IMG/VR virus record: IMGVR_UViG_646206259_000005
From: a virus
Lineage: Duplodnaviria; Heunggongvirae; Uroviricota; Caudoviricetes
DNA: 41,081 bases
Strand: one strand, 5' to 3'
Shown: piece by piece, positions 1-20,979 of the stretch
How the letters are laid out: each line of letters opens with the position of its first letter
How positions within the stretch are numbered: position 1 is the stretch's first letter
Made by a program: the position numbers and the translations under genes
The notes under the pieces: generated by a model
What the model was told of the DNA's origin: nothing
The model's database searches: none
The model's input: the letters and a program-made list of their open reading frames with translations, nothing else

Positions 1-1158
1 ATGCTCACCGTTAAGCAGATTGAAGCAGCAAAGCCGAAAGAAAAACCATACCGCCTACTCGATGGTAATGGCCTGTACCTTTATGTCCCTGTATCAGGGA
101 AAAAGGTATGGCAGCTTCGCTACAAGATTGACGGTAAGGAGAAAATCCTGACCGTCGGAAAATATCCACTTATGACTTTGCAGGAGGCAAGAGATAAAGC
201 ATGGACCGCGAGGAAAGACATCTCGGTTGGCATCGATCCGGTAAAAGCGAAAAAGGCTTCGTCTAACAACAATTCCTTTAGTGCGATTTACAAGGAATGG
301 TACGAGCACAAGAAGCAAGTCTGGTCAGTAGGCTATGCAACTGAACTTGCAAAAATGTTTGATGACGACATTTTACCTATCATCGGCGGCCTTGAAATTC
401 AGGATATTGAGCCGATGCAACTGCTGGAAGTAATCCGCAGATTTGAAGATCGCGGTGCAATGGAGCGAGCCAACAAAGCCCGCAGAAGATGCGGCGAGGT
501 TTTCCGTTACGCTATTGTCACTGGTAGGGCTAAATATAACCCGGCACCTGACCTTGCTGACGCCATGAAGGGATACCGCAAGAAGAACTTCCCGTTTCTT
601 CCTGCAGACCAGATCCCTGCATTCAACAAAGCACTGGCAACATTTTCAGGAAGTATCGTATCGCTCATTGCGACCAAAGTTTTACGCTACACAGCCCTAA
701 GAACGAAAGAGCTTCGTTCCATGCTATGGAAGAACGTCGATTTTGAAAACAGGATTATCACCATCGACGCCAGTGTGATGAAGGGACGCAAAATTCATGT
801 GGTCCCGATGTCAGACCAGGTGGTTGAACTTCTCACTACGCTAAGCTCCATCACCAAACCAGTATCAGAGTTTGTTTTTGCCGGGCGCAACGATAAGAAG
901 AAGCCAATCTGCGAGAACGCGGTTCTACTTGTGATCAAACAAATCGGCTATGAGGGTCTAGAAAGCGGTCACGGATTCAGGCATGAATTCAGCACGATTA
1001 TGAACGAGCACGAATGGCCTGCTGACGCTATTGAAGTGCAACTGGCACATGCCAACGGCGGATCTGTGCGCGGTATTTACAACCATGCTCAGTATCTCGA
1101 TAAGCGCAGAGAAATGATGCAGTGGTGGGCGGATTGGCTTGATGAGAAGGTAGAGTGA
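1..1158 (+). CDS. int: Tyrosine integrase, P4/IntS family
   Basis: 385 aa; C-terminal HGFRHEF...HANGGSVRGIYNHAQY consistent with tyrosine recombinase R-H-R-Y catalytic region; same length as E. coli CPS-53 IntS as I recall. Confidence 0.9.
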   Translation: MLTVKQIEAAKPKEKPYRLLDGNGLYLYVPVSGKKVWQLRYKIDGKEKILTVGKYPLMTLQEARDKAWTARKDISVGIDPVKAKKASSNNNSFSAIYKEWYEHKKQVWSVGYATELAKMFDDDILPIIGGLEIQDIEPMQLLEVIRRFEDRGAMERANKARRRCGEVFRYAIVTGRAKYNPAPDLADAMKGYRKKNFPFLPADQIPAFNKALATFSGSIVSLIATKVLRYTALRTKELRSMLWKNVDFENRIITIDASVMKGRKIHVVPMSDQVVELLTTLSSITKPVSEFVFAGRNDKKKPICENAVLLVIKQIGYEGLESGHGFRHEFSTIMNEHEWPADAIEVQLAHANGGSVRGIYNHAQYLDKRREMMQWWADWLDEKVE

Positions 1159-1397: not shown

Positions 1398-2195
1398 TTA
1401 TTGCGTGAGCTTCGCATGATAGCTGGAGCATCTCTTGTCATCACTAATTAGCTCCGCTTTATCCGTTCTTGCCCATATTATATTTCTTTTTATTATTTTT
1501 GCTGGATTACCGGCTGCTGCACACATAGATGGCACATCTTTAGTTACAATACTCCCATACCCAATGACAGATCCGCTTCCAACAGATACCCCTTTCATTA
1601 TAGAGACATTTCTCCCTACCCATACGTAACTAGATATAATGATATCTTTTGCCCAATTAATCCTTTTTTTGCTATGAATATCAAATATAGGATGCCCATC
1701 TGATGCACGCAAAATAACATCTCTTGCTATCATGCAGTCATGGCCAATTGTAACATTGCACTTATCAGTGACGACTTCAAAACCTGCACCTATTGTCGTT
1801 CTTCTACCGATAATAACTTTTGAACCTTTTGTTGCGACAATATCACCTTTAATCTTACTGTTTTTATGTATTCTTACGTAATTATTATCACCCCTAAATA
1901 TTACGGTAAGCCATCGACACTCAACATCATCTTCTATAATAAGTTTGTTATTGTTTCCATTGAACTGAACTTTATTCTCTTTGCTATTTACAAGATCTCC
2001 ACATACAAAAATATTACCTGATCCATTATCATCAACGGAAAACGAGTCTTGAGTCTTGAGTCTTGAGTCTTGAGTCTTGAGTCTTGAGTCTTGAGTCTTG
2101 AGTCTTGAGTCTTGAGTCTTGAGTCTTGAGTCTTGAGTCTTGAGTCTTGAGTCTTGAGTCTTGAGTCTTGAGTCTTGAGTCTTGAGTCTTGACAT
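1398..2195 (-). CDS. neuO: Hexapeptide-repeat O-acetyltransferase with N-terminal RLKTQDS heptad repeats (NeuO-like polysialic acid O-acetyltransferase)
   Basis: Translation MS(RLKTQDS)x7 then left-handed beta-helix acyltransferase-like body (IGxxxxIG-type repeats); AT-rich moron next to tailspike; architecture of CUS-3 neuO from established literature. Confidence 0.8.
   Translation of the reverse strand: MSRLKTQDSRLKTQDSRLKTQDSRLKTQDSRLKTQDSRLKTQDSRLKTQDSFSVDDNGSGNIFVCGDLVNSKENKVQFNGNNNKLIIEDDVECRWLTVIFRGDNNYVRIHKNSKIKGDIVATKGSKVIIGRRTTIGAGFEVVTDKCNVTIGHDCMIARDVILRASDGHPIFDIHSKKRINWAKDIIISSYVWVGRNVSIMKGVSVGSGSVIGYGSIVTKDVPSMCAAAGNPAKIIKRNIIWARTDKAELISDDKRCSSYHAKLTQ
2044..2190 (-). repeat. 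21 perfect tandem copies of heptanucleotide AAGACTC (coding strand) inside the 5' end of the O-acetyltransferase gene
   Basis: Counted directly: gagtctt x21 on + strand from 2044 to 2190, start codon complement at 2193-2195; 147 nt = 49 codons, in frame. Confidence 0.95.
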
Positions 2196-2348
2196 ATTAG
2201 TATCCTACGTTATTTTACCACTAGTTACTTTTCTTGTCATTAAAAAGCATTTAAATTTTTATATTTAATTTCGTTGACGTCAATGTTTTTTGCCAATGTA
2301 CTTACTTCTTTATGTGAGCAGTTCATATTTTTGACGCCAACGAAACAT

Positions 2349-5297
2349 TTAGTGCTTCCCTTCTATTAAGTCTAACCTAGCTTTTATTCTTTCTATTTCT
2401 CTGCGCTGCCATGCCGCCTCGATATAGAATAAGAGATCAGGTCTGACCCCCCATCTAGATCCTGCTGGCGTTATTTCAACGCGCTCAATGATGTCTTCCA
2501 TTACCATCACTGGATTATCATCCTCATCAACAATGATGCTCCCGTCATTATCAGTCAGCGGCATTTCCCTTTGGCCAGTAATGACGTCATCATATACTGC
2601 GGGATAATCGTCATAGCAAAGAAACGCATAGCGGCATGTTGTGCTTTCTTCTTCCATGAGTCCGTGAGAAATAAGAACATCACGAAGTTGCTGCGCGATT
2701 ACACCATGATGTATCCTCGCCCCTTCTTCCCCCTTTATAGCGACAGCGTTCAGCCATTTATAAGCGATATACCTGACGTCACCCCAGGCATCCAGCAATG
2801 CTTCGTCAGGAGAGACCGGCTCTGTCTTTAATGTTCCGTCACTGGTAACCACAGGATTGGAGCCAAGATAAACTGTCGAGAACCTGTTTCCCGGACCACC
2901 AAGAGCATTTACATTATCAAGATAAGGTTTAACATCTCCGTTCTCAAAAAGATGTTCGAGTGCGTTATATACCGCGCGACGTGGAGTACTGCTTCCGGAA
3001 CCATGCAACGTTATCATTGCACCATCTGCTGAAGACGTTGTTTCACCGCCGCTAACGATTAATCTCTGAGCGGTAACATCATCAGACGGTACTTTCTTCG
3101 CAATAATGGCGTAATTACCCTCAAGTTTGACTTCCGCGCGAACTTGTCCTGATGTACCTGCATGGACAGTCAGTGACTGGACGGCAACATCATCTGTGAA
3201 ATCAACGGGTACAGGAACCGTCCTCACGCCTGACGTCGACATAAAAGTAGGAAGCGTTCTGTTAGGAGTGGCTCCGTAGACAAAATCCCTTGAAACAAAT
3301 TCTTCCTGTTTAATTTTCACCCTGAAACAATACAAATCAGCCGGGTGACCATCGTGAACATAAGGATATTTTCTGTTGTTATCCCCTATGCTCCATGGGT
3401 TTAGAAAGTCTTCCCCACCGAAAATGTAGTACAGCCAGTTGTCTTTGATACAAACTGAACCAACACCAACCGCAGAGTTAACTATTCCGCCCTGATAAAT
3501 CTGATCAGTAACATTAACCCACTCTACATTATCCAGACTCCACTCATTGACGTTAACTCTGGTCATAAATGTTCTTGGATAGTTTCCTGCATAACGGTTA
3601 TCAGGTTCTCCTCCTTCCCACTCACCAAATGCGCGCTCACTGCCAAAAATAATCAGCTCATCGCCAACTTTGGCAAAAGGAAGGTTTGAGTGATGAACAT
3701 TATTTGGGAAGCGAAGAGAATTCCATGATGTACCTAAATCAGAGCTTCTGTGCAATGAACTACCGGGTTGAGTACTTAATGTCCCCCTGGTCGTCAGATA
3801 CAGAATGCCATCATAATATTTTACACATGGCTCAGATGCATTCGCCTCATATTCTGCAGGTATGCGTCTGCGAACAAAGCTACCAGGAGAACCGAAAGCA
3901 TCAGAGAAATAGAGTATCCCAAGCTCGCGTGGACCAATATCACCATTATGGTAGCCAACAGCAAAACTGTTATCGCTAATCGTCGCAAAACTGTGAATCT
4001 CAGTAACAGGAGTGCTTCCGTCAACAAAAGAAGGAATAGTTCCAAGACTGGTTTTTCTCCATGGTGACGAGTGAAATGATGTACCAAAACTCCAGTATCT
4101 ACCCTCGTTATTCTGATCCACATCCTGGGTATTTTGCGTCGTAACTGTAAAAGTATTTTTATCAATAACAGTAGTCACCGTCATATTCCCGGTAACACCT
4201 GTAACACCAGAGTTTGAGAAGTTGACAAAATCACCAGCAAATAATCCGTGATCAGTAATGCGAATATAAGCGACTTGCTGATTTGCTGCTTTCGTTATAC
4301 CACCATAAGCGCGAAGGCTGCGACTCATTGGGCGATCCCACAACTCTGCAACCTGCAGTTTATTTCCGCTCACGGTCCGCGTCTCAATTACAGCAAAAAG
4401 GCGATTTCTGACAACCCCCATACTCATGCAGTGATAGTTAACTGTGGGATAGTTTTCATGTAAATCTGTAAGCCATTCCGGCGTTGTCCAGGTCCTCCCG
4501 TCATCTCCTGAGCGAACCCATGCAACATGGAGGTTATTTACACCATGGCGGTCTCCAGCCATAAAAGGCGCATAGATGACATTGTCATATACAAACGTTT
4601 TATCCTGCGTCCAGGCGTTGTACCACGGTGTATCTGTAATTTTAAATAACTCTCCCTGGATAAAATCTTCAGAAGCATAAAAAAGAGGCTGACCCGGTAT
4701 TCTCTCAAATAAAAAACGAGCATTTTTAAATCGACTGACATCTGGAAGAGTTGATACTTTAAAAGTAAGCCCTCGCCCATCTATCTTTTCACCACCTGTT
4801 GCAACAGAAAGTAATTCTGATAGAGCTGATGTATCATCATGAACACCATCACCAATAGCCCCCCAACCTCTTACATCATAACTGTCTCTCCATCTTGCTA
4901 TCTGAAGTTTTGGGTATTTATTCGCTCCATCTGGGTCTTCTAATTGCTGCCGTAACTGATCAGGATCATACTTCAGCACATTCGGAAAATAGAACTGCTG
5001 CACACCATATGCATCATAAACAGCCATAGAATGGCCCTGTACAGTAACGAATTTGGCAATCTGTCCGTTATATACCGGATATCCAGCAGCGTTAATGATG
5101 ATTGGTTGCGAAACAGGAACGTGAGAACCGTCTTCATTCTCCACATAAACCTGAATCTGGTTTTCAGGATTTACTGGGTCAGTGTCAATTTTACCGATAT
5201 AAATCTTTCCATTAGCTACGGCTTTAAAAGAACGAGCCATAGTGAAGAGTTGCGAAGGCATGCTTACCACAACATTGGCATTTATTGAATCTGTCAT
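2349..5297 (-). CDS. Tailspike: P22 gp9-like head-binding domain + sialidase/endosialidase-type catalytic domain + C-terminal intramolecular chaperone domain
   Basis: N-terminus [12 protein letters not shown]...[22 protein letters not shown] closely matches P22 tailspike N-terminus; Asp-box motifs SGDDGRTW and SSDLGTSW; C-terminal region typical of self-cleaving chaperone domains of endosialidases. Confidence 0.85.
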
Positions 5298-5355
5298 TTA
5301 ATTTGCTCCAGATACAAGGAATCACCGAAGCATGGCTACGATGAATTTTGGGCAT

Positions 5356-5379
5356 AAAAAAACCCAGCCGAAGCTGGGT
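5356..5379 (-). terminator. Rho-independent terminator between ant and tailspike
   Basis: Hairpin ACCCAGC-cgaa-GCTGGGT with 7-nt A run on + strand (U run on minus-strand transcript). Confidence 0.6.
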
Positions 5380-5397
5380 TGTCGCGTTGGTTATCTG

Positions 5398-6560: not shown

Positions 6561-6713
6561 TCACACCGTTACCCCCTCTCTCTTCAGGCTGTCTATCAGG
6601 CGCTTGATAACCTCTGAGTTAAACGACCTGCACTCTTCCTTTGCCCTGCTACCGATAGCATCCTTTAACGACTGCGGCATCCTTACCAAAATCTTACTTA
6701 TTTCTTTCTCCAT
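6561..6713 (-). CDS. arc: Arc-like ribbon-helix-helix repressor (start at internal Met MEKEI with GGAGGG RBS)
   Basis: Motif RSFNSEVIKRL resembles P22 Arc RSVNSEIYQRV; sits between ant and divergent mnt. Confidence 0.7.
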   Translation of the reverse strand: MEKEISKILVRMPQSLKDAIGSRAKEECRSFNSEVIKRLIDSLKREGVTV

Positions 6714-6827
6714 GTTACCCTCCACACAAACAACTCTTTTCGAATACAAAAGATAGCAAAGTGAGTATATCTAGTCAAAATTTTTTTGCATACACTTTGA
6801 TATCAAATTGAATACCAAAGGTGTGAT
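6714..6827. promoter_or_regulatory. Divergent immI promoter/operator region between arc and mnt
   Basis: 114-bp AT-rich intergenic region between divergent RHH repressor genes; by analogy with P22 Pant/Pmnt. Confidence 0.5.
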
Positions 6828-7076
6828 ATGGCAAAGGGTGTGTCAATTTCTCCAACTACGGTAAGAATCCCTGAATCTTTACGCGAGGCTCTTGCTGTCA
6901 GAGCATCAAAAAATGGTCGCTCTGTTAACTCCGAGATCGTCATGATTTTGCAAGCCGCGATTGATGAAGATAGGTCGCCAAAGTCAGTTGAGTCATTTGC
7001 TCAGCAAGAAGCTGACAAATTCAAAGAGGCGCTGCTTGAGACGCTAAAGACCATGTATGGTAAGGATGAAAAATAA
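6828..7076 (+). CDS. mnt: Mnt-like ribbon-helix-helix repressor
   Basis: 82 aa; motif NGRSVNSEIVMILQAAI resembles P22 Mnt NGRSMNSELLQIVQDAL; divergent from arc-ant. Confidence 0.8.
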   Translation: MAKGVSISPTTVRIPESLREALAVRASKNGRSVNSEIVMILQAAIDEDRSPKSVESFAQQEADKFKEALLETLKTMYGKDEK

Positions 7077-7612
7077 TGCTGCACACAATTCATTTCTTAT
7101 GCCCCGTTAACACTGCCACTGTTGGGCAACTTCAGAACCACTGTCTCACCGCATTATCTCAAGGCGCAACTGAATTAAATATCCATATATCAAGTCAGGG
7201 AGGGGAAACTGCCGCTGGCTTTACTGCGTATAACTTTCTTAAGTCACTCCCTGTTACCGTTAGAACTCACAACATAAGCAATGTTGAATCCATAGCTAAT
7301 ATCGTTTTCCTGGCTGGCTCAGAACGTTTCGCAAACCCATTATCAAGATTCCTGTTACATCCTCTATTATGGGGCTTTGCCTCCCCAGCCGCCGACCATG
7401 CCAGATTGAGAGAGTACGGGAAATGCCTCGATAACGATCTTGATCGCTTCGTTGAGACGTTCAATATCGACATCGGAACCCATATTAGGTGGGCATCCCT
7501 GATAGCAGACTCGACCATTTTGGATGCTAACAAGGCTCTTGAGCATGGCATAATTAATTCCATAAAAACTGCAAGGCTGGCATCCAATCAGGCAAACTGG
7601 TGGGTTGTTTGA
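7076..7612 (+). CDS. ClpP-family (S14-like) serine peptidase homolog, translationally coupled to mnt
   Basis: By-eye alignment to E. coli ClpP: ISSQGGETAAG...VESIANIVFLAG...FANPLSRFLLHPL parallels INSPGGVITAG...AASMGAFLLTAG...LPNSRVMIHQPL with candidate Ser/His conserved; start ATG overlaps mnt stop (TAATG). Confidence 0.6.
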   Translation: MLHTIHFLCPVNTATVGQLQNHCLTALSQGATELNIHISSQGGETAAGFTAYNFLKSLPVTVRTHNISNVESIANIVFLAGSERFANPLSRFLLHPLLWGFASPAADHARLREYGKCLDNDLDRFVETFNIDIGTHIRWASLIADSTILDANKALEHGIINSIKTARLASNQANWWVV

Positions 7613-7637
7613 TGGGTAAATCATGATTACTCCTTAT

Positions 7638-7664
7638 AAAAAACCCACCTGACGGTGGGTTTTA
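7638..7664. terminator. Bidirectional rho-independent terminator between convergent genes
   Basis: Hairpin ACCCACC-tgac-GGTGGGT flanked by A6 upstream and T4 downstream. Confidence 0.55.
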
Positions 7665-8087
7665 TTAGTGCTTGTATAGCTTGAACTCCCTGTCGAGCCA
7701 TAAGACATAAAAAGTGGCTCCTATCTTATAACCAACCATAGGTGCCTTAGAGCAAAATCTGAACGCAATGAAATCCACATCTTGAGTAACATGCTTAGGA
7801 ATCGGAGCCTTTATCGCGTTTCTGGCAATTTTTTCCGTCCCAAGCCCGTGTTTATCAGATTTTCGTATCTCATCCCATGACATCTGACTTAACCTGAACA
7901 GCCTATCTGCAAATGCTGCCTTTTCATGCTTTTGGCAGCAATCTAGGCAATACCCCTTTTGTAGGTATCTAAGAGAAAATACAGGCGGACTTTTGTCTAC
8001 ATCATGAGATTCGTGATGGATAGAGAGGCCAACAGTAGCAGAGCTCTCTTTATCCCTCTGTTTTATTCTTCCCTTAACTCTAGACAT
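7665..8087 (-). CDS. Hypothetical 140-aa protein, downstream partner of Panacea-domain gene (candidate toxin/effector)
   Basis: ORF 5 bp downstream of the DUF4065 gene on same strand; contains CLDCC cysteine cluster; no family confidently recognised. Confidence 0.5.
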   Translation of the reverse strand: MSRVKGRIKQRDKESSATVGLSIHHESHDVDKSPPVFSLRYLQKGYCLDCCQKHEKAAFADRLFRLSQMSWDEIRKSDKHGLGTEKIARNAIKAPIPKHVTQDVDFIAFRFCSKAPMVGYKIGATFYVLWLDREFKLYKH

Positions 8088-8092
8088 ACACG

Positions 8093-8542
8093 TCAGTTAA
8101 TTAACGTTTTGAAAAAACCTTTCATAGAATCAAGTGTGATTTCTTGGCTAACCGCACCCTCAATGTAAGCATCTTTCCATGGCTGCTCTTCGTGAGTCAT
8201 ATTGCGCAGTTTCCAGGCAGAAAACTGACCATAAACTTTATACACCTCATCCAGCAATTCAATTTCATCTTCACTGAATTTTTTAGCGTCAAAGTTTTCT
8301 GGCGCAGGTAAAGCTCCGTTACCACAGTCCCTATATTTACGATACAATTCAGGAACTACTGGCCCATGCATCCAGGCTTCAATTTTCTCATTAAATAGCG
8401 GCTTACCCAGAAGAACCAGAGAAAACCCTTGGGCATAATACGTCAACTTCTGAATTTTTAGGTTAGAGATAATGTCGCCACTTTCTTCATCGCAATGCGC
8501 CAAGAAGTAGTCGGCGACATCAAAACAAGTGAGCATAAACAT
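8093..8542 (-). CDS. Panacea (DUF4065, GepA/SocA-like) domain protein
   Basis: N-terminal pattern DVADYFL...GDIISNLKIQKLTYYAQGFSLVLLGKPLFNEKIEAWMHGPVVPELYRKYRDCG matches my recollection of the DUF4065 phage-associated protein family. Confidence 0.65.
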   Translation of the reverse strand: MFMLTCFDVADYFLAHCDEESGDIISNLKIQKLTYYAQGFSLVLLGKPLFNEKIEAWMHGPVVPELYRKYRDCGNGALPAPENFDAKKFSEDEIELLDEVYKVYGQFSAWKLRNMTHEEQPWKDAYIEGAVSQEITLDSMKGFFKTLIN

Positions 8543-8910
8543 ACCTCCATCTTGATAGCCGCAGCTATGTATACAACTGTGTCAAGTTGCATTTAATACC
8601 ATAACAAAGCTGTCATCAATCCTTCAGAGGCTAACTTACAACCACTTTCTCGACACGTTTAAATCATTACGTTTCACATTTACTGCATTTTCGCCGAAGT
8701 TACCTATAAGGTAATGTCACATTTCCTGCAAGTTTCATGCAATGTTGAAAAGTGAGCTATTCACTTTTCTATGACACCAAACACCAAAAATAGCACTTTT
8801 TGCTAAATCATTCGTCCAGGTTGTGGATGGTTTGTCGTTGACACGTTTTCACACACCACTCCACCAATAAAGTATCATCTGGTATCCTGAGCAAAACTAA
8901 GGAGGTTGGT

Positions 8911-9300
8911 GTGAGGCAATTTCTTGCTGCTATGTTCTTATTCATATCTTTTGGGGCTACAGCAGAGTGCTGGGTAGTTGGAGATATGCGCGGAATAAGC
9001 TATTCAGAACGAAATAATTTCCAACCAGAAGAAGATGGTTTTAGTGGAACATTCATCATTAAGACAAGCGGTGAAGATGCCAGCATCACATATTCTGGGG
9101 CAGATGCGGGCGGCATGGCTTACAAAGCATTGTCTAAAAACTCCATCATAGGAATCGGCGCAAATGGCGAAACTCAACGCGTTATCGACTCATGGGTAAT
9201 ACATCCTACTGGAACAGTTTTAATGTCAAAAACCATTTCCGGTTATGGAAATATGGATTCAACCAAAGCTTTTGTTGGAAAAGTAAAAAGAAAATGTTAA
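8911..9300 (+). CDS. Secreted/periplasmic hypothetical protein (signal peptide), GTG start
   Basis: N-terminus MRQFLAAMFLFISFGATA-EC typical Sec signal peptide; RBS AAGGAGG 6 nt upstream of GTG. Confidence 0.6.
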   Translation: MRQFLAAMFLFISFGATAECWVVGDMRGISYSERNNFQPEEDGFSGTFIIKTSGEDASITYSGADAGGMAYKALSKNSIIGIGANGETQRVIDSWVIHPTGTVLMSKTISGYGNMDSTKAFVGKVKRKC

Positions 9301-9324: not shown

Positions 9325-11154
9325 TTACTGCTGTGTTGCCTCAGTAGCAAACAGCGGTCTGATGGCATTCGCAGCATTATTCAGCGCTCTTTCATAAGCT
9401 GGCGTTCCAGCTTTAGTGTTTGCCAGACGTAAGAGCGCATTCCTTGTTGCTTTGGACTCATACAGGCGCATCATTGTACCGAAACCAGATTCAAGCGCCA
9501 GTGTTGCCCCAAGAGTCGCAGTTGCGCCAATCGTCCTTATCCTGTTGGCTTGCGATTGCCCTGTCTGAGTTACAACATTTGCGATGTCTGACCTTGCTGT
9601 TTGCTGTAGAACTTCATGAAGAGCATCAAGCTCTTTCATGTGTCTCCCACTGAATATCGTGTTATATATCTGACCGTCAGATTGCGACTTCAACTTATTT
9701 AACTCGGTAAGAAATTTTGTTGGCGAGTCTCCTGCCTTTTCTGCAATCTTGCTAATATAAGCAGCACGCATAGCGTTCTTTCCATCTTCACTAAGAGCAG
9801 GCCATATCCTCTTAATATCTGATGGTTTTCTGCTGAATACAACGCTGTTTATTAGCTCTGGAGTAAACTCTTTTTTAGCTTTGTTGAGATTGTTCGCAAT
9901 CCTTTTATTGAGAACCTTATTGAAGACGTTGGAGTAGTCAGAGTTTGCTTTGACGTATCTGGCAGCCTCTCCAGCCCCCAAATACCGTGCTGCGTTATTC
10001 CTCAAATCTGAACCCATTGCCCTCTCCACGGCATCAGTTGCGGCTTTCGCGCTATTAGGAAAAACCATGGCATCTCCCTGAATACTTTCCCTTAATGCTG
10101 ACCGCAACTCTCTCAATAGTCCAAAATCTACATCTGGTTTAGCAAGCTCTTCTCGCAAATCGGATAGCCCGCGAATCAAATCCTTATTTGCCACTTTCCC
10201 AAGCCTGTTAGCCCTGGTAAGCACGTTGTCGATAACCTTAATGGATTTTGATGTGTCAACAGGTGTATCTCCCATTTTAGTTGTAATGTCTTCAATAACG
10301 CTTCCAGCTGAATCCTTCCTTGACTTCAGAGAACCATACAGATCGTCAACAACAACTGATGGGCTATATTCACCATATTTCTCAAGCTGTTTTTTAACTA
10401 GCTGACTTCTTTTTGCATATTGCTCCGCACGCTTTGAACCTGTCCCGAGCAAAGCCCCCTCGGCATCCTGAGTAAGGCCGCGAGTGAAAGCATTTTTCGG
10501 CGGGATAACATCAGATGTCATTGGTGTCACGCCCATCGATTCTGATGTGGCAATTTTCTTCGCCACTTCTGGCGCAATATCACCTTTTATAGCCGTTATT
10601 CCACGCCCTATTCCCTTTGCTGCTGCGGAAAGAACCCCCTGAGCGGCAAGGTTAACTCCGGCATTTTTTGCTGCATTTTGTGCGAAATCGCCTTTCTGAT
10701 TTGCGGCCTCTGCCAGTGATCCAATAGCCATGCTTCCTGCCGTTCCAACTCCTGGAACTAAATACCCGCCAATTGTTTCTCCAGTTTGCGCATAAGGGTC
10801 TGTCGGTCGATCGACTGGACGATAGACATCATCCAATACTTTTGGACCACCAAGCCCCTGACTGATTGCATTAATCAGACTTGCGCCACCCTGCAATACG
10901 TCAAATGGTATGTTTACCAGACCACGACCAGCCTGTTCTGCAATTTGCCCTGCACTTTGACCACCTGTGAGCCAATCGCCAGCTTGTTGCATCAATGATG
11001 GTTCTTCCCGTGTTGGTGCATTATTGGCCTGATTAACTGTTTGTTGCTGAACAGCCTGACCAGCAAAATACTCATCAATGGCGGCCCCAATATCTTCGGT
11101 GCTCGTACCATCAGGAAAGGTAAATGTCTTACCGTTTGCAGTTACTTTCATCAT
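9325..11154 (-). CDS. Ejection (injection) protein, P22 gp16-like
   Basis: 609 aa, same length and position as P22 gp16 at end of the ejection-protein block. Confidence 0.8.
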
Positions 11155-12566
11155 TCCACCGTAAATTGAATGCCTGATTTTGAGGTATATGATCCAACCT
11201 GATTCCGTGGTTCTCCTGAAGGTGTCGAATCTTGTGCTGGCGCTGCGTCAGTATTCATTGACATATACCGCTTAACGGCACTCCCCAGTGATTCACCTTT
11301 TTTAACATCCAACCCCAATATCTGACCGCCATTACGCGATTGTCCAGGGTTGCCATTCGCGCTCATCCACTCGGCTTTAAACTCATTAAACTGCGCGTTT
11401 CGTCGCTCAAGGTTTGCCATTGCATCAAGCCATCTTGCGACCGTCTCAGGGTTATCCATGTCAGTTGGCGCACCCTGTCGAACGATCTCAACGTCTTTAT
11501 CCGTTGCTGGGCCGGGAGGTAGGAATTTAAGAACCTGACTGTTAACAAGGGCATTTTGGCGGATGCGCAAATCACGCAATGTCGTATCGCTTCCGGTAAG
11601 TTTTGCGAACATGTTCTGTGCGTTACCGAACAAACCTGTCGTTGGTTTTTCTGCTCTGAACTGTTGAGCAAGCGCACTCATAGAATTGGCTGAGTTTGAT
11701 GATGCTGTGGCATTGTTTACAGCCGTCTCGATGCCTTTTTCCATGTTTACTGACAGCTTAGGTGCTTCACTAATCAACTGCTGAGCCTTTTCCTGCGCTT
11801 GCTGCATCTTAAACCCGAACTCTTGCTGATCCAGAGCCAAGCGTTGTGCTGCGATATTGTGCCCAGTCATTGCTGACTGATAGGAAAGGTTTTGCCCTCT
11901 CGCCTGAAGTGCTTCTCCAGCCTGATTGCTGCGGATTGTCTCTGCCAGTTTGCCTCGGTCAATTTCACGACCAGCCATCTTGTCCTGAACAGCAAACGCC
12001 TTTTCTGGTCCAAGCGCACCGAGAGACATAGTAGTCAGCATGTGTGATAGCTGCTCTGGATTCTGGATACCTGTCTGAATCATCCAGTCAGCATTCGCCC
12101 CCACGCGATTTAACCTGTCCTTGTTGTCAGTAATGAATTTACTGTAGGCTTCCGGTCCCTGGGAAAGAGCGACGTTAGCCCTCATGGCTAAATCGCCCAT
12201 ATCGTTGCGTTGCTGCTCATTAAGACCGGAAAACGCCTGTTGTGCCTGTGCAACAAACGCTGGATTTTCCTGGGCAAACTTAAATAGTCCAGATGGATCA
12301 CCAGAAGCCCATGCATCAGCGTGAACCTTATTGAACGCACTAATAGCTTTCTGTTGCTGTTCCTGATTGTAAATATCAGCAACTCCAGCCAGACCACGTA
12401 ACGCGGTCAGACCAATGTTATTTGCACCTGAGCGAGCCAGTTCATTGTTTTCGCGGATCAGACCAAGCGTTGCGTTAATGTCGCTTGCCTTTGGCGCATT
12501 CTCATTTTGCGTACCGATGCCAGCCAGAAAACCACCAGAATTAATACCCTGTTGCCACGTAGCCAT
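11151..12566 (-). CDS. Ejection protein, P22 gp20-like
   Basis: 471 aa; position between gp7 and gp16 equivalents. Confidence 0.8.
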
Positions 12567-12575
12567 GATTACCCC

Positions 12576-13265
12576 TTAAAACAACGAGCCAAGCAGACCA
12601 AGACCGCCGCCGATCGCAGCCCCCCACGGAGTTGATGAACCAATTAATTTCGCAAGTCCAGCCCCAGCAATGGCACCAGACGCACCTCCGCCAATAGCAG
12701 ATTGCATTGCTGATGGTCTGTTGGCGTTTGCCGCTGCAAGAGCCGCGCTTTGCTGTGAAATCTGGCTCATGTTGTTGGCATATGTTTGCCCAGCATTTGC
12801 CTGCCCCTGAAGCGCGCCAAGACCAATATTTGCCAGATTCTGGTAGTTGTTCATTTGTCCAGATAGCCATTGCTGACCAAGCGTTGGTGCGATTGTTGCT
12901 AACTGATTACTGGTTGAGGTGGAACCCAATCCACCTGTTGCTTCCGCTGCCGCCAGACTCTGATAGCGAGCCTGACCTGCAAGGTCTTTATACTGCTGAG
13001 AGTTGTAATACTGGTTAAGTGCCTGACCTTGCCCCTCCAGAGACGATAAGTTCTCGAGGCTGCCGACATACTTCTCAGCCAGAGGAGTAAACGGCTTCAG
13101 GTTATTCATGATGGTGTTGAACTGCTGATTTTGCAGGTCTGCGGCATACTTCTGAGCTTCTGCGGCATACTTTGCACTTTTATCGGAGCCACCTTTCCCG
13201 CCTTTTTCAGGGCAATAAGGTTCCTCGCCGCGCAGTTTTCTGCCCAGCTTAAATGCATATAACAT
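12576..13265 (-). CDS. Ejection protein, P22 gp7-like
   Basis: 229 aa; Gly/Ala/Gln-rich; position after gp14 equivalent. Confidence 0.75.
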   Translation of the reverse strand: MLYAFKLGRKLRGEEPYCPEKGGKGGSDKSAKYAAEAQKYAADLQNQQFNTIMNNLKPFTPLAEKYVGSLENLSSLEGQGQALNQYYNSQQYKDLAGQARYQSLAAAEATGGLGSTSTSNQLATIAPTLGQQWLSGQMNNYQNLANIGLGALQGQANAGQTYANNMSQISQQSAALAAANANRPSAMQSAIGGGASGAIAGAGLAKLIGSSTPWGAAIGGGLGLLGSLF

Positions 13266-13267
13266 GG

Positions 13268-13723
13268 CTATCTCCCGTGATTCAGGAAGTCGATTAGTTC
13301 TTCGCGTGTGGCGCTGTAAAACGTCACGTCATCCACGCCTTTGAAGTATTTCTTGATGGTTCCTACACGCTTAAGGCCAACCATTGCGCAGTACATCTGC
13401 CCGTGGCGGAATTTGCGTGCAGCGAACGATGTGACGCACTGAACGGTGGTGTTAGTCAGAATGTATCGCCAGAACGCCAGCCCGATTTCCTTGCTGAAGC
13501 CGCGAATCTCTGGCAGGTACATGGCGTGGCAATCAAAGGTTAGCGGCTGAATCTCCTGATAGTAAACAATTCCGCCGAACTGCCCGTGCACGTTCACCTC
13601 AAAGTAACGGCATTCAGGTTTGTAGTCGTATCCATCACCGTTGTTGCTCCCGGCGATAATGTCATGGTGATTTCCTACGGCTTCTATCAGGTCGATGTTT
13701 CGCGTTGGTTTGAATGTAATCAT
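13268..13723 (-). CDS. Head assembly protein, P22 gp14-like
   Basis: 151 aa; position between tail needle and gp7. Confidence 0.7.
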   Translation of the reverse strand: MITFKPTRNIDLIEAVGNHHDIIAGSNNGDGYDYKPECRYFEVNVHGQFGGIVYYQEIQPLTFDCHAMYLPEIRGFSKEIGLAFWRYILTNTTVQCVTSFAARKFRHGQMYCAMVGLKRVGTIKKYFKGVDDVTFYSATREELIDFLNHGR

Positions 13724-14424
13724 CAGTCAATCAGCCCATGTAATCTAAGTGCCGTTTCAATCGCCAGAATACGCTGCCGCGCCTGCTGCAAACCTGTAGC
13801 GAGAGCCGCGACTTCGGATTGTGTGTACGTAGTGCCGACCGTGTATGACTGGTTAGCGTTGAATGAGCCAAGAAGAGGTGTACCTGTGGCTGCAGTCCAT
13901 CCGGTATTTCTTGCTCCAACAACCTGAATTCCATCAACTGAATATGATGTTTTTACATCCAGCGGTGACGCAAGAGACTGCGATTCGGTTACGGTTTTCG
14001 ATACGTAATCACTCTTAATGCCAGAGACATCGTTTTCTACGTCATCCAGTCTTTGGTCAACAGTGACCAGATGCGCCTGAATATCGATAACCTCATCCAG
14101 CAAGTAATCAACATCGCTACGCAGTACGACTATCTTCCCTTCGGCAGTTGTTAACCTGACCTCAAGTAGATTTATCGCTTTTGTGTTTGCGGTGATTCTT
14201 GCGTCGTGATCAGCCAGTTCGACATCCTGTTCATCGTTTTTTACCTGGGCATCGTAAGCGCCCTGACCAGCCTGATTTGCCTTCCCGGCAATTGCGCCGA
14301 CATCAGCCCCCTGATTAATGACATACAGCAGGTAAGACTGGCTGAATATATTGCGTGGAAGGATTGATGTATCGAGTCGTGTAGCCTGAATTGTTACCGG
14401 CTCATTGAGATTCGAATCAGCCAT
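13723..14424 (-). CDS. Tail needle protein, P22 gp26-like
   Basis: 233 aa; strong match to remembered P22 gp26 ([18 protein letters not shown]..., C-terminal [29 protein letters not shown]). Confidence 0.9.
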
Positions 14425-15842
14425 TACTCAATCCTTATCTGGCAACCAGACAGAGTGACAGGTGACTTCGTGATAACGCGCAATTTGAAGCCGACATTTT
14501 TCCTGATGCGCCCTACTCGCTTCCACAAAACACGTTTGTCGTAAACGAACGGTTCATTCTGCTCAATCATCTGCTCACGCCCGTAATTGATGCCGTCAGT
14601 GGTTGCAGAGAGAAAAAGGCGGTCAGCATACTGCGCAACGCCAGTTGACGACTCAACCTCAAGGTCGAAAACTCTGGCGTTATCCGCTTTGAACAACGGA
14701 GTAAACAGCAGGTGTTCCTGTTGCCTGTCGTACTGGCTGCTGATATCGAACTGCAATTTCCCTGTCATCGATTCAAGCTTATCGCCGCACGTAATTTGGT
14801 TGCCTTCGTAAATGAAGTCGATAGCGCGGTACACATCGTCATACAGGCCTGTTTTCAGTACACACCATTGCGGACCATTGGCGCTTGAAGATGCGTCGTA
14901 CACGAGGACGTGGCGCGGCAGGTGAATAATCAGCAACTCATGAGCATCAAACCGCAACGATTCCATCACGCCATCAGCCAGTTCATCAGCAGTGTAGGAG
15001 CGGAGGATTTTCTCAATGCTCGCGCTGGCTATTGGTGATACCTGACCGGAGCCGATGATGTATACAGAAGGCGCGCCTGTTGCCGGATTGCTGATGAACG
15101 CATACGAATCAGCAAACGGCGTTTTGCAGTAAGTCCCGGCAATACCTTTCTGCACCATCAGCGATGGCTGTGCGACATACAAAGCGGCACCAACAGTGGT
15201 TGCACCAGTCATGGAGAAATATTCAATCGTTGATGAACCAAAGCAGACAATGAAGTCTCGCCATGTTCCGATGCCGATAATGCCGTCAGGCTGCGATTCT
15301 GCGCGATATTGTGCGCTGTATCGGTCAGGGTGCGATTCGTCTTCAGGGTCAGTAATAAACCATGAATCCGTGCCGTCTTTTGACCACGCATAACGCCCAC
15401 GTAAGCGTGTAATGTCGCGGACTGAACCTAACTCATACTGCGTAAATCCGCTGTCTGCAGGCCAGTTTGAGACGGTTTTAACCGTGCCATCATAGCGATA
15501 CTCAACCAGTTGACCATTAACGCCTACAGCCTGAGATGTTCGACCATGCGCCATTGATACACGACCACTTCCGGCAACATCACCGACTTCACTTTCTCCT
15601 TTGTACAGCTTGCCGCCACACACGCGATAAACAGCATTCTGCGCCATGTTGTACTCAACTCCGCGCGATACACCGTTTACATCAGAGCGTTTGGCAATGC
15701 CCGGGAATGAGCGAAGATATCCGCTGCTGTTAAGGATTTCTTTGGGTGTAGCCAACATATTCACTGGCAGATAGTCGATATAGTCGGCGTTTCTAAAGTC
15801 TTTGCCGACACCTTTCATAAGCGGAAGTTGCTGAATCGGCAT
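14424..15842 (-). CDS. Tail accessory / head completion protein, P22 gp10-like
   Basis: 472 aa, same as P22 gp10; conserved position. Confidence 0.8.
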
Positions 15843-15851
15843 TTATTCACC

Positions 15852-16313
15852 TCACGTACTCGGATCATCTTTCTCGATGTAAAACCGATTCCACGTAAAC
15901 GCGCTTTTGTTACCACTACCGCGAGGCATGTCATTTCGCCGCTCAAGTGGTGGTATTTTGGTTAAAGCGATACAGATTGTCTGATATGCACTGTCAGCAG
16001 CGGTAAGGAGAGCGTCTGACGGCTGAATGACGTTATCCATGCACACTTGCACAGCGAGTTTCAAAGCGACGCCATCATTTGCCCATGCAGGGATACCTGA
16101 ATCATCGTCAGGTAACGGCATGATGCCGTTTTCTGTATCAGCAAACTGATATCCAAGCTCGATACCTTTAGCCTGCCATGCTGCCATCATGTCTTCGAGG
16201 TCATTAATGGCATCTTCAATTGCCTGAGGGTCAGCATCTGTCAACGTGGCATTGGAATACAGCCCGGCTTTTCGTAAAGCCTTTAGAACGAGATCACCCT
16301 TCGTTTTCGCCAT
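15852..16313 (-). CDS. Tail accessory factor, P22 gp4-like
   Basis: 153 aa, position between coat and gp10. Confidence 0.7.
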   Translation of the reverse strand: MAKTKGDLVLKALRKAGLYSNATLTDADPQAIEDAINDLEDMMAAWQAKGIELGYQFADTENGIMPLPDDDSGIPAWANDGVALKLAVQVCMDNVIQPSDALLTAADSAYQTICIALTKIPPLERRNDMPRGSGNKSAFTWNRFYIEKDDPST

Positions 16314-16482
16314 CTTCTTCCGCCTTAGCCACTTTTTGCTTCGTTGCGGTTTCTTCAGGAGTTTTTACCCAACCTTTTTTCAGGTGAGATTTAACTTCTT
16401 CGTCATCAACAATGACGTAATCGACAGCAAACTGACCACAGGTGATCATGTTGCCAGGCTTATAGAGCATTGTTCGTGCCAT
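16294..16482 (-). CDS. Small hypothetical protein between coat and gp4 (start at internal Met MARTM with GGGAGAAG RBS)
   Basis: ORF with strong RBS; position conserved in P22-like phages. Confidence 0.45.
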   Translation of the reverse strand: MARTMLYKPGNMITCGQFAVDYVIVDDEEVKSHLKKGWVKTPEETATKQKVAKAEEDGENEG

Positions 16483-16523
16483 TGTCTTCTCCCAATAAAA
16501 ATGGGGCCGAAGCCCCACCAAAA

Positions 16524-17777
16524 TTACTGCCCGGCAATAACGATGCCCGTATATTCAGGAACAAGTACAGAGCAACCGTACAGAGTGGTGAAACGAGCAG
16601 TGGTTACGCCTTTGATGTGGTCGAAGGCATAAGACATGATCAGCGTAGCGCCCTGCTCGGTGGTTGCTGTCATTACCTGTGGACCCTGACCTGTCGGGAA
16701 TGCCAGTTTGCCGTACATCAGCTCAACAGAACCATCAGCCCAGAAGAGGTTAGCAGGTGCTGCGTTCTTGTTGAGAATGGTGATTGCTGCTGATTCTGCC
16801 GGTTTGGCATCGACGTTTGCATATGGACGACTCGCAACATCAGTATTTTCAACAGGGAGAATCTTTGGAGAAATTGTTACGGTAGTTCCGCTAACAGCCA
16901 GAACACGGAATACCTGCGGTTGACCGGTGGTATCTTTTGTGATCTGGTGTACGGAATTCACACCGGCAATGGTGAACGCATCACCAACCTGCAAGCCAGA
17001 TGCAGATACCGTAATAGTCCCCTGTCGGTTATCAACTGGCATACCATTTGAATCTTTCGCTTCAACCTTGTGTTCAGGTTGGCCTGATACTGTCAAGGAT
17101 TCAGTGCTTCCTTTCGGTAATCGACCAGAAATATCGGTCTTGTAGCTATCGAAGGACGCAACCGGAGGGATTTGCGCTTTTTCGTATGCTGTCAGGGTTG
17201 CGCCCTGAGCATAGGCACGGTGACCAAGCTCGCCAGCAAGGTCTTTGTAGTTGAAGGGGTTCCAGAAAGAGCGACGGTTGATACCCTGAGGTACACCAAT
17301 CGCCGTCATGGTGGCATCAATACCTGCCGCACAGTTCCACAAATCACGGCCCTGTGTACCTGCGGTTGAGTCAGCCATCGTGATCACGTTAGTAGCACGC
17401 TGCGTGACCATGGAAATCAGGTCAGAGTCAATCTGTGCAGCAAGGCGCATACCTGCGGCGCGACCAGCTTCAGTTTTATGTTCCGGATCACGCATTTCAC
17501 GCGCATCCAGAGTGTACAGAATGTTTTTCGGCTCCTTGAACACTGAAGGAACAAGGCGCTGAACCAGTGCTGTTGGCGTTTTGCTGCTGAGGTCGAGGCC
17601 TTCCTCAATATTCATGTGGTAATGCTGCGGACGATACAGAACATCACCTGCTCGCTGCATTGCTGTATCACCGGGACGGAATTTTTTAGCGTTACGGGAA
17701 ACTACGCAGGCGGCCTCAAAGCCTTCAACGTAGTTTTCGAACATGATTTCAAGGTCTTTTGCTAATTGGTTAGCCAT
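16524..17777 (-). CDS. Major coat protein (P22 gp5-like)
   Basis: 417 aa directly downstream of scaffold gene; partial similarity to P22 coat. Confidence 0.85.
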   Translation of the reverse strand: MANQLAKDLEIMFENYVEGFEAACVVSRNAKKFRPGDTAMQRAGDVLYRPQHYHMNIEEGLDLSSKTPTALVQRLVPSVFKEPKNILYTLDAREMRDPEHKTEAGRAAGMRLAAQIDSDLISMVTQRATNVITMADSTAGTQGRDLWNCAAGIDATMTAIGVPQGINRRSFWNPFNYKDLAGELGHRAYAQGATLTAYEKAQIPPVASFDSYKTDISGRLPKGSTESLTVSGQPEHKVEAKDSNGMPVDNRQGTITVSASGLQVGDAFTIAGVNSVHQITKDTTGQPQVFRVLAVSGTTVTISPKILPVENTDVASRPYANVDAKPAESAAITILNKNAAPANLFWADGSVELMYGKLAFPTGQGPQVMTATTEQGATLIMSYAFDHIKGVTTARFTTLYGCSVLVPEYTGIVIAGQ

Positions 17778-17795
17778 GCTTAATGCTCCAATAGG

Positions 17796-18689
17796 TTATT
17801 TTTTTGCCTTTTTAGCGGCGAAATACGGCGTCCAGTCACCAGTTTCCAGCGCCTTGGCTTTCAATTTGTCGAGGTTGTTGATTACTGCGCCGTTGCTCCC
17901 CTTAACCGTCGGGGTTGTGGCTGCCGTGGTTTTTGCTTTTGGCATGATTCTGGCCTTCGATTCGATACGTTCCAGCAGACGACCAATTGCTACGGGGTTG
18001 GTAGCTTCTGCCAGTTGCTTGCGCAGTTCAGCGTTGCGACCAAGCGCCAGAACAACGATTTCCGGCTTCTCTGACTCAAACAGGATCGCGTTTTGTGTCT
18101 CGATGGGGATTTCCTCGAGTACGGCCTGCTCAGCTTCCTGATAGCCAGGAACTTTGAGAGCCTTAACACGTTGCTGATATTTGGATAATCGCTCTTGATA
18201 GGCAGCCTGAAGCTCCTGCTCCTTCTGCTTGCGAGCCATCTCCTGTTGCTGGTACTTGCCATTATCCTCTGCCCACTTAGCCATGCGTTGCTGGTAGATT
18301 TCTTCATCGAAACCGATGTCCTCATCATCCAGTTTTGGCATTCGCGGTGGTTGAGTGATTACCGGCTGCTGCTCGACGGGTTTCTGAGACTGACGCATCA
18401 GCTCTTTCAGCTCGCGGTCTTTCTCTTTAATCGTCTTGCGCAGGTGTTTTACCAGTCCATGCTCAGCGCCATCTTCGCTGGTTGGCGAATCCAGCTTTTC
18501 GTCACCAAAGTAGAATTCCTGTTCTGATTCGTCGTCATCAGTTTCAGTAGCCTCCTCTGCATCATTGCCTGAGGACTCACTGCCATCTTCTGTTTCGACT
18601 TTTTCAGCCAGTTCGACATCATCAGGAATCTGCTCTGACGCGTCGGTTTCGATTTCAACTTCTGGTGTGTTTTCTGCCATCTGGTCCAT
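17796..18689 (-). CDS. Scaffolding protein (P22 gp8-like)
   Basis: 297 aa, highly charged helical protein between portal and coat; basic C-terminus. Confidence 0.85.
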   Translation of the reverse strand: MDQMAENTPEVEIETDASEQIPDDVELAEKVETEDGSESSGNDAEEATETDDDESEQEFYFGDEKLDSPTSEDGAEHGLVKHLRKTIKEKDRELKELMRQSQKPVEQQPVITQPPRMPKLDDEDIGFDEEIYQQRMAKWAEDNGKYQQQEMARKQKEQELQAAYQERLSKYQQRVKALKVPGYQEAEQAVLEEIPIETQNAILFESEKPEIVVLALGRNAELRKQLAEATNPVAIGRLLERIESKARIMPKAKTTAATTPTVKGSNGAVINNLDKLKAKALETGDWTPYFAAKKAKK

Positions 18690-18779
18690 TTGTTACCCCT
18701 GTTTACTCGATGTTCAGCCCATCGGAAGGCAATAGGGTGCCAGGCCTCATAAAGACAGCCATTGCACGTTATGGGTTAA

Positions 18780-20978
18780 TTACTGCTGTGGTTGTTGCTG
18801 AGTTGATTTTTGCAGGATGCTGCTGATGTCCATGCGCTGCGCATGGCCCTGTGCCTGACTTTTCAGGACAAGCTCTGCATCAGCACGGGCATTGTCTCCT
18901 TGCTGTTGCTGGAACTGTCCGAGCAGTTTCAGAGCCTCGCGGATATCAGATTTCTGCTGGCTATCGGCAGATGCGAGGATTTTCACAACATTTGCCGCTG
19001 CAACCTGAGCATCAGTCTGTGCCTGGAATGCTTTAACCTGAATGGCTGCCTGCTCGTTCTGCGCTTTCTGCAATTCAGCCTGACCAGCAAGAAGCTGACC
19101 TTGCGCAGCAACCATAGCCGGATCTGGCTGACTGGCCTGTTGTTGTTTCGCCTGCTCAACCATCTGCTGTTCTTCTGGCGTTCTCGGCTTGATAACTCCA
19201 GACAGAAGCAACTGATTGCGGTTGTATTCTTTAAGGTCGTCCATCCCTTCGCCGTCCATATTGTCGAGGATCATCGACGATACAAGGTCGTGTTTCGGCG
19301 TTCCGGGCGGGATAAGTGCCAGCATGGAAAGTAACGACTTAACCGTTGCGTCACGGCGAGTAGCGAACGACTGACCGACATCGACAGTCACTTCATAGTT
19401 ACCCTGCGAAAGGTCGTTAAGCGCGATAACCTGCCCTGTCTGACGGTCAACCACTTCACCAGTCATCAGCGCCACGTCATCGCTGCCATCCTCATTAACG
19501 ATGCGCATTGGCGTATCGCTGCCATAGACTTCACGAGCCATAGAAAGCCACACGACGCCAGCACGGCGCATGGATTTAGCCATGTTGTCCATGTAGATAT
19601 AGGACTGCGTGTCCATCCGGTTAAAGATGCTATCAACGGTATCGGTAGCGACGTTGCTCGGCATGTTCTCAAGCTGCGACGCACCTGTAATTTGCTGAAT
19701 AGCCGTTCCGGTGTACTGCAATAGCCCGGCAAGAGCTGGCGGCATTTGTGTCGGAGGTGTCCAGCCAGCAACCTGAGCTTCTGAAATGACTGTTCCGTTT
19801 TTGTCCTTCTTGCTGGTCATAGGAAGAACTGCAGGTCTTTTCTTATTCCTCTCTGCCCAGTGATTCATTAATGGGCCGGGAATGAAATCAACATCCACGA
19901 TAGGAATGCCATCACCGCCAGCCTGAGTGGCGTTATCTGCAATCATGGAAACCATCAGGTTCTCAAGACGCTGTGCATCCATCGCTTTTGCTGCGTGGCC
20001 TTCGATTCGCTCCTGATTATCAACAAATGAGCGACGCCCATATACCGGGATGAGTGGAATATGTTCGCCCGGAATACGCTTCGGTTCTTCCAGCCATTCA
20101 GCGCCAGACAGAAGGCCGCAATAAACGCGGCGTTTCTTCACCGTTCGCTCACCAATCAGTTCGAATGCGCCATCGGTTAGCTCGTCGACAATATCTTTGA
20201 TTTGATCTTCATCATAGATTGCCGTTTCTCCGCTAACAGGGTTGCGCCACGCCGTGAGCTTCACCTTCTCTATGCGGACTTCGTAGTAACGTCCAACATA
20301 GATGGCATCTGGCGTTGACCAGTCATATTGAGTGCCAGTGTCATCACGAGAAAGGCTTGCCGCGATGGAATCAGGGTATTCAGCCTCGAACGCTTTAGGC
20401 GTCATGGAGAACATTTCCATAGCCCACATAGCATCAGAGCGGTCATATTGCTTGCTGTCCTGATCAAAGAAGACGCATGTCGCTGGGTCGTAAACAGGAA
20501 GAAGGCTGATGCGGCGCTGCTCGTTACTCGGATCCATTTCATCTTCGTAATCGGCACACATGCGGAAACAACCGAATCCACCCGTTACGGCATCATCAAA
20601 TGCGTTATCACACGCTTCGCCACCGGATGTTTCCTGATAGTCAGCGCGGAATTTGCCGTTCATTTTTTCGGCTAAAGCTTCCGATGCCTTGTCATCCTTC
20701 GGCCTGAATTTAACGCTGATGCGATTCTGTCGATACTCGCCAATGATGCGATCACATTCACGGGAAATCTTATTCAGTTCAAAACGCGGATAATGCTCAA
20801 ACCTGCCTTCATCAAATGAGTAACCAGCGTTTGTGCTGCCTTCCCACTGTGCGCCGGACACCCGGACGAAACGCTGAGCCTCAATAATCTGCTCACGCAT
20901 ATCCTGCGTTGCTGACCAGGCATTATCAAAGTTGCACAGCACCTTGCGATGCCAGTCAGTCATCTTTTTTTCTGCCAT
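18780..20978 (-). CDS. Portal protein (P22 gp1-like)
   Basis: 732 aa downstream of terminase large subunit; acidic/Gln-rich C-terminal barrel region. Confidence 0.85.
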   Translation of the reverse strand: MAEKKMTDWHRKVLCNFDNAWSATQDMREQIIEAQRFVRVSGAQWEGSTNAGYSFDEGRFEHYPRFELNKISRECDRIIGEYRQNRISVKFRPKDDKASEALAEKMNGKFRADYQETSGGEACDNAFDDAVTGGFGCFRMCADYEDEMDPSNEQRRISLLPVYDPATCVFFDQDSKQYDRSDAMWAMEMFSMTPKAFEAEYPDSIAASLSRDDTGTQYDWSTPDAIYVGRYYEVRIEKVKLTAWRNPVSGETAIYDEDQIKDIVDELTDGAFELIGERTVKKRRVYCGLLSGAEWLEEPKRIPGEHIPLIPVYGRRSFVDNQERIEGHAAKAMDAQRLENLMVSMIADNATQAGGDGIPIVDVDFIPGPLMNHWAERNKKRPAVLPMTSKKDKNGTVISEAQVAGWTPPTQMPPALAGLLQYTGTAIQQITGASQLENMPSNVATDTVDSIFNRMDTQSYIYMDNMAKSMRRAGVVWLSMAREVYGSDTPMRIVNEDGSDDVALMTGEVVDRQTGQVIALNDLSQGNYEVTVDVGQSFATRRDATVKSLLSMLALIPPGTPKHDLVSSMILDNMDGEGMDDLKEYNRNQLLLSGVIKPRTPEEQQMVEQAKQQQASQPDPAMVAAQGQLLAGQAELQKAQNEQAAIQVKAFQAQTDAQVAAANVVKILASADSQQKSDIREALKLLGQFQQQQGDNARADAELVLKSQAQGHAQRMDISSILQKSTQQQPQQ

Positions 20979-20979
20979 A

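Follow-up and report, generated by a model that had tools for sequence, protein, structure and literature searches.

It has been shown that N-terminal adaptors have been exchanged among the tailspikes of the phages CUS-3, P22, Sf6, HK620 and K1F (PMC5380687, citing Stummeyer et al. 2006). In endoNF, the endosialidase of phage K1F, the catalytic residues are H350, R549, E581, R596 and R647, and K410 has been reported to be indispensable in vitro, although a deep mutational scan carried out in the phage found that it could be dispensed with (PMC12632334). For the C-terminal part of the K1F endosialidase, which contains the Ser/Lys dyad S911/K916, G956 and N912 have been reported to be essential; in MYRF, where an Asp occupies the position equivalent to N912, mutation to alanine markedly reduced processing (PMC3742443). 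The auto-processing domain of MYRF has its prototype in this C-terminal chaperone, and endosialidases are useful reagents for the removal of polysialic acid, all of which is already established from K1F and CUS-3. The CUS-3 prophage also carries neuO as a cargo gene, whose repeat array phase-varies by strand slippage (PMC3046976; PMC13001214) and whose full-length translation (ON) requires a repeat count divisible by three (PMC13001214). O-acetylation of the capsule has been reported to impair its degradation by neuraminidases and to protect against K1 phages, and the CUS-3/neuO pair has been placed only in K1 (alpha-2,8 polysialic acid) E. coli (PMC3046976; PMC13001214). A study from 2026 found that O-acetylation shields K1 E. 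coli from a lytic K1 phage, which was read as superinfection exclusion (PMC13001214). The chimeric architecture and the module exchange (PMC5380687), the cleavage of the chaperone (PMC3742443), the structure of NeuO (PMC3046976), the ecology of O-acetylation (PMC13001214) and the pairing of capsule degradation with capsule modification are all already published.

The window, that is, the whole stretch of 41,081 nucleotides that was analysed, contains a tailspike gene which, judged by its sequence, is the known endosialidase tailspike of CUS-3, a prophage of E. coli K1, and nothing new. In a six-frame ORF listing of the window, the gene appeared as a single ATG-to-stop frame of 982 aa on the minus strand, with exactly the coordinates that the earlier note had reported (Table 1); on the opposite strand inside this frame, no listed ORF exceeded 97 aa, and nothing spoke for these short ones. 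Megablast against phage records matched the gene to siaK1 of CP000711.1, annotated as 'endosialidase tailspike protein', with 98.8% nucleotide identity over 100% of the gene. The two proteins show 12 amino acid differences including a 1-aa indel, with Ser4 of the window protein being an extra residue near the N-terminus relative to CUS-3, and with R268 in the first Asp-box where CUS-3 has K. The GenBank note on siaK1 in the CUS-3 record lists endo-alpha-sialidase activity with the evidence code IDA (PMID 16689790). Among 5426 complete E. coli genomes, 181 had at least 80% of the tailspike gene covered. In the best 10 of these 181 the gene was 100% identical, and 9 of these 10 best-ranked records have Homo sapiens annotated as their source. 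The window adds one more copy of a prophage that is common in ExPEC, and the value of the analysis lies only in the correct annotation, namely a prophage of the CUS-3 type from extraintestinal pathogenic E. coli with a K1 capsule, its neuO being switched ON.

Table 1. Positions of the annotated features in the window, with residue ranges of the tailspike protein and the basis of each assignment.
Feature	Position	Strand	Basis
Prophage integrase	1..1158	+	Pfam Phage_integrase
neuO, polysialic acid O-acetyltransferase, full-length phase-ON frame, 265 aa	1398..2195	-	PDB 3jqy; Pfam Hexapep
Poly-psi variable-number repeat, AAGACTC x21 = 7 RLKTQDS heptads	2044..2192	-	Tandem Repeats Finder and regex
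Tailspike gene, CUS-3 siaK1 allele, 982 aa + stop	2349..5297	-	ORF listing and siaK1 identity
C-terminal intramolecular chaperone/autoprotease domain, aa 819-982	2352..2843	-	PF13884; PDB 3gw6
Stalk (End_tail_spike, triple beta-helix region), aa 664-818	2844..3308	-	PF12219 E 7.6e-78; aligns to the end of mature endoNF
Catalytic six-bladed beta-propeller (End_beta_propel), aa 214-663	3309..4658	-	PF12217 E 1.6e-233, 774.7 bits
Asp-box 2, SSDLGTSW, aa 518-525	3723..3746	-	Motif match, translation
Beta-barrel inserted in propeller (End_beta_barrel), aa 325-407	4077..4325	-	PF12195 E 2.9e-46; 67.5% identity to endoNF
Asp-box 1, SGDDGRTW, aa 263-270	4488..4511	-	Motif match, translation
Endosialidase N-terminal extension (End_N_terminal), aa 147-213	4659..4859	-	PF12218 E 8.9e-37; 61% identity to endoNF
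Linker, head-binding module to endosialidase module, aa 115-146	4860..4955	-	No Pfam domain
P22-type head-binding (tail-hub docking) domain, aa 4-114	4956..5288	-	Pfam PF09008 E 1e-64; coordinates translation-checked
Strong terminator-like hairpin (stem of 8 bp with 5 G-C pairs, then T7 run)	5361..5380	-	Between ant and the tailspike start codon
P22-type antirepressor Ant, immI region upstream of tailspike as in P22	5398..6327	-	Pfam P22_AR_N, P22_AR_C; CUS-3 annotation
Arc-like repressor	6561..6749	-	
Arc-like repressor	6828..7076	+	
ClpP-like protease	7076..7612	+	
140-aa ORF directly downstream of the Panacea-domain antitoxin gene	7665..8087	-	
SocA/Panacea-domain antitoxin	8093..8542	-	
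129-aa ORF	8911..9300	+	

As shown in Table 1, the tailspike is built of a head-binding module, a linker and an endosialidase module, and its six Pfam domains all scored far above the curated cut-offs. The assignment of the N-terminus to the head-binding domain of P22 gp9, already made in the earlier note, was borne out both by the Pfam match and by PDB searches, in which this region matched the P22 gp9 head-binding structure 1lkt (aa 7-110, E 1.9e-44) and the Sf6 tailspike 7sg7 (aa 1-119, E 4.9e-63); N-terminal domains of the P22 and Sf6 tailspikes (1lkt, 2vnl, 8tvr, 7sg7) together matched aa 1-128. The bounds of the linker were taken from the same searches, since the P22/Sf6 homology stops at about aa 119-128 and the homology to endoNF begins at aa 146. 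From there to aa 818 the protein matched the crystal structures 1v0e and 3gvl of endoNF with E = 0, with 65.5% identity to the endoNF construct over aa 147-818 and, from aa 146 to aa 980, about 65% identity to solved structures. The closest structural relatives of the body found in the PDB search are all endo-N-acetylneuraminidases. On these comparisons, the body is assigned to the phage endosialidases (endo-N-acetylneuraminidases) of the endoNF type. In endoNF, the counterpart of the inserted beta-barrel binds polysialic acid.

Both Asp-box strings quoted in the earlier note were found in the translation. That they are chance matches was rejected, as none of 20,000 composition-preserving shuffles of the protein contained two or more matches to S.D.G..W and both lie inside the 774-bit propeller match. 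The former description of the body as sialidase-type with bacterial Asp-boxes could, however, be understood in two ways. For a canonical bacterial exosialidase of the BNR/GH33 type, which releases terminal sialic acid, speak the two Asp-boxes and the beta-propeller fold. Yet the Pfam model BNR_2 reached only 17.3 bits against a cut-off of 31.4 bits, compared with 774.7 bits for the propeller model of phage endosialidases, and a motif scan of the tailspike protein did not find [FY]RIP. Since BNR_2 remained below its threshold and the FRIP motif was absent, the exosialidase was ruled out, its probability being close to nil; the Asp-boxes are the sole sequence signature shared with this class, and the nearest structures listed above are all of endo-acting enzymes. 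What stands of the description is an endosialidase propeller with Asp-boxes, and what falls is its reading as a canonical BNR enzyme.

The five catalytic residues of endoNF, in the order given above, align with His251, Arg457, Glu489, Arg504 and Arg555 of the window protein and are all conserved. The position of K410 is occupied by Gly311 (4365..4367, minus strand), and this natural glycine fits the phage scan because K410 was dispensable there. Relative to endoNF, the protein also has an insertion of 7 aa, FVDGSTP, at aa 424-430 (4008..4028, minus strand), in a propeller loop just past the beta-barrel; it is common to CUS-3 and ZX5. These two features, the roughly 35% of residues that differ from endoNF and an O-acetyltransferase co-resident with the phage could speak for a specificity shifted with respect to endoNF, be it towards O-acetylated polysialic acid or, say, towards a different polymer of sialic acid. 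We regard such a shift as very unlikely: the CUS-3 protein, which is nearly the same, carries an annotation as endo-alpha-sialidase based on a direct assay, none of the catalytic residues has changed, and O-acetylation has been reported to impair neuraminidases and to protect from K1 phages, not to attract them (PMC3046976; PMC13001214). Like the 98.8%-identical CUS-3 gene, for which the activity was assayed according to its GenBank note, the window allele is predicted to encode an enzyme that hydrolyses internal alpha-2,8 linkages of polysialic acid.

Directly C-terminal to the stalk follows the domain for which a likeness to the intramolecular chaperones of endosialidases had been proposed, and the proposal holds. 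The Pfam family Peptidase_S74 'chaperone of endosialidase' covers aa 819-879 (E 1.6e-10, 41.5 bits versus a cut-off of 22), and aa 699-980 match the stalk-plus-chaperone structure 3gw6 of endoNF with E 8e-95 and 2e-73, the latter with conservation of the Ser/Lys dyad. The cleavage region reads ...SNPVVT818 followed by S819-D-G-T-L-K824 in the window protein, and the mature endoNF chain ends with ...SNPIVT. In the alignment to 3gw6, Ser819 stands opposite the Ala substituted for Ser911, Lys824 opposite K916 and Gly865 opposite G956. Where endoNF has Asn912, the window protein has Asp820, an aspartate that CUS-3 shares. From the work on K1F (PMC3742443), autoproteolytic release of the chaperone domain after trimerisation is predicted.

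The gene order of the window, int, neuO repeat region, siaK1, 'boundary sequence' and ant, is that of the CUS-3 record, and the first 25 kb are collinear with CUS-3-like phages (coverage of 86% for phiv205-1 and 75% for CUS-3). E. coli PA45B carries exactly the tailspike gene of the window, and there the integrase adjoins tRNA-Arg. The hairpin between ant and the tailspike gene falls within the stretch annotated as 'bsq1 boundary sequence' in CUS-3, and expression of the tailspike presumably needs readthrough from upstream of it. Apart from neuO and the tailspike gene, the window is a P22-like prophage, and a full P22-like virion module was identified with PHROGs at 9325..22395 (ejection proteins, tail needle, gp10-/gp4-type hub, coat, portal and terminase). 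Within it, at 13723..16313 on the minus strand, lie the tail-hub partners of the gp4, gp10 and gp26 types (head-tail adaptor Ad3, head closure Hc3, tail needle). One could suppose that the prophage is cryptic, that its tailspike is never assembled on virions and that selection in the lysogen acts on neuO alone, in line with the wide distribution and clonal inheritance of the element in ExPEC lineages (PMC13001214). However, the frame of 982 codons is intact with all catalytic and cleavage residues conserved, and the full set of P22-like virion genes is intact in the window. We consider such an idle remnant improbable, and it would concern the present use of the gene, not the identity of the protein.

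A cargo block (6561..9300) with the repressor, protease and antitoxin genes given in Table 1 separates the tailspike/ant region from the genes of the ejection proteins. At this position, the RS218 record of CUS-3 contains hkcB and hypothetical proteins, and the ClpP-like and Panacea genes are not annotated there. The Panacea-domain gene and the 140-aa ORF downstream of it possibly form a toxin-antitoxin pair.

On the other side of the tailspike gene, the earlier note had seen a capsule O-acetyltransferase and had concluded that the phage both degrades and modifies the same surface polymer of a host encapsulated with polysialic acid. The neighbour proved to be a hexapeptide-repeat acetyltransferase by Pfam, with 241 of 242 aa identical to the crystallised NeuO (3jqy, E 1.6e-160), and neuO is annotated at the same position in the CUS-3 record. 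Its array of AAGACTC was scored by Tandem Repeats Finder as 21.3 copies with 100% matches and counted by regex as 21 perfect repeats. As 21 is divisible by three, neuO of the window is in the ON phase. The CUS-3 record has 19 repeats and E. coli PA45B has 20, and in the latter the sole annotation of neuO is that of a truncated acyltransferase, which is consistent with the OFF phase. The stop codon of the tailspike and the start of neuO are separated by 153 AT-rich nucleotides (2196..2348, minus strand), in which a promoter-like site lies at 2240..2212 (ATGACA-17-TAAAAT, extended TG). This site could give neuO a promoter of its own, independent of late phage transcription. NeuO acts specifically on polysialic acid, the polymer that the endosialidase body is expected to cut; because tailspike mechanism and NeuO would meet on the same polymer, the degrade-and-modify reading and the polysialic acid host were both correct, the latter in agreement with the restriction of the CUS-3/neuO pair to K1 E. 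coli in the literature (PMC3046976; PMC13001214).

Taken together, we are highly confident that the gene encodes the homotrimeric, capsule-cutting tailspike of a temperate E. coli K1 phage that is P22-like and of the CUS-3 type, with neuO as its lysogenic-conversion partner. The domain identities, the conserved residues, the genomic context and the identity to CUS-3 were observed directly in the window, and nothing contradicting the endosialidase tailspike was found in this analysis. The trimeric spike would dock with its P22-type N-terminal domain on the P22-like tail hub, and the central endosialidase module would bind and cleave the alpha-2,8-polysialic acid K1 capsule, so that the virion could tunnel to the outer membrane. 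As an intramolecular chaperone, the C-terminal domain would drive trimerisation and stalk folding, and would then remove itself by autoproteolysis between Thr818 and Ser819, dependent on Ser819 and Lys824 (PMC3742443). In the lysogen, NeuO, as the conversion product of the ON phase, would O-acetylate the same polymer and probably lower the susceptibility to K1-specific phages, as published for K1. For the window allele we infer the activity, the cleavage and the exclusion effect from the literature on CUS-3 and K1F.

A part of the tailspike is shared with a phage of a different genus. The tail fibre QTH80017.1 of vB_EcoP_ZX5, a temperate Uetakevirus, has a nearly identical endosialidase body and chaperone from about aa 176 to 968, whereas its N-terminal stretch of about 190 aa is unrelated to that of the window protein. 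The cassette shows 99.5% nucleotide identity, with 810 of 847 aa identical over the whole alignment, and corresponds to 2381..4773 (minus strand; nt 525-2917 of the gene) in the window and to 3001..5393 on the ZX5 side in the numbering of locus L002. Near-identity to ZX5 starts at about aa 176, within the End_N_terminal domain. This pattern suggests that the endosialidase-plus-chaperone cassette was passed very recently between two podovirus genera. We further speculated, as a tentative and rather doubtful combination, that the phase-variable neuO switch gates not only foreign K1 phages but also the tailspike of the prophage itself, with cells in the ON phase shielded from CUS-3-type virions and those in the OFF phase permissive, so that the pair would form a self-regulating system of receptor masking and receptor destruction, and that, separately, the cassette moved very recently between Lederbergvirus and Uetakevirus.

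Among the described systems, the tailspikes of P22 (gp9), Sf6 (gp14) and HK620 share the homologous head-binding domain, and their genes likewise lie downstream of ant in a P22-like genome. Their bodies, in contrast, are right-handed beta-helix O-antigen endoglycosidases without a sialidase propeller and without a cleaved C-terminal chaperone. The endoNF of K1F (1v0e, 3gvl, 3gw6) shares with the window protein the propeller, the barrel, the stalk and the C-terminal chaperone, but its N-terminus is a T7-type adaptor where the window protein has the P22 head-binding domain (PMC5380687). SiaK1 of CUS-3 (CP000711.1, ABQ88383.1; Stummeyer et al. 2006, PMID 16689790) shares with the window protein both the order of the domains and the position in the prophage, int - neuO - siaK1 - ant.
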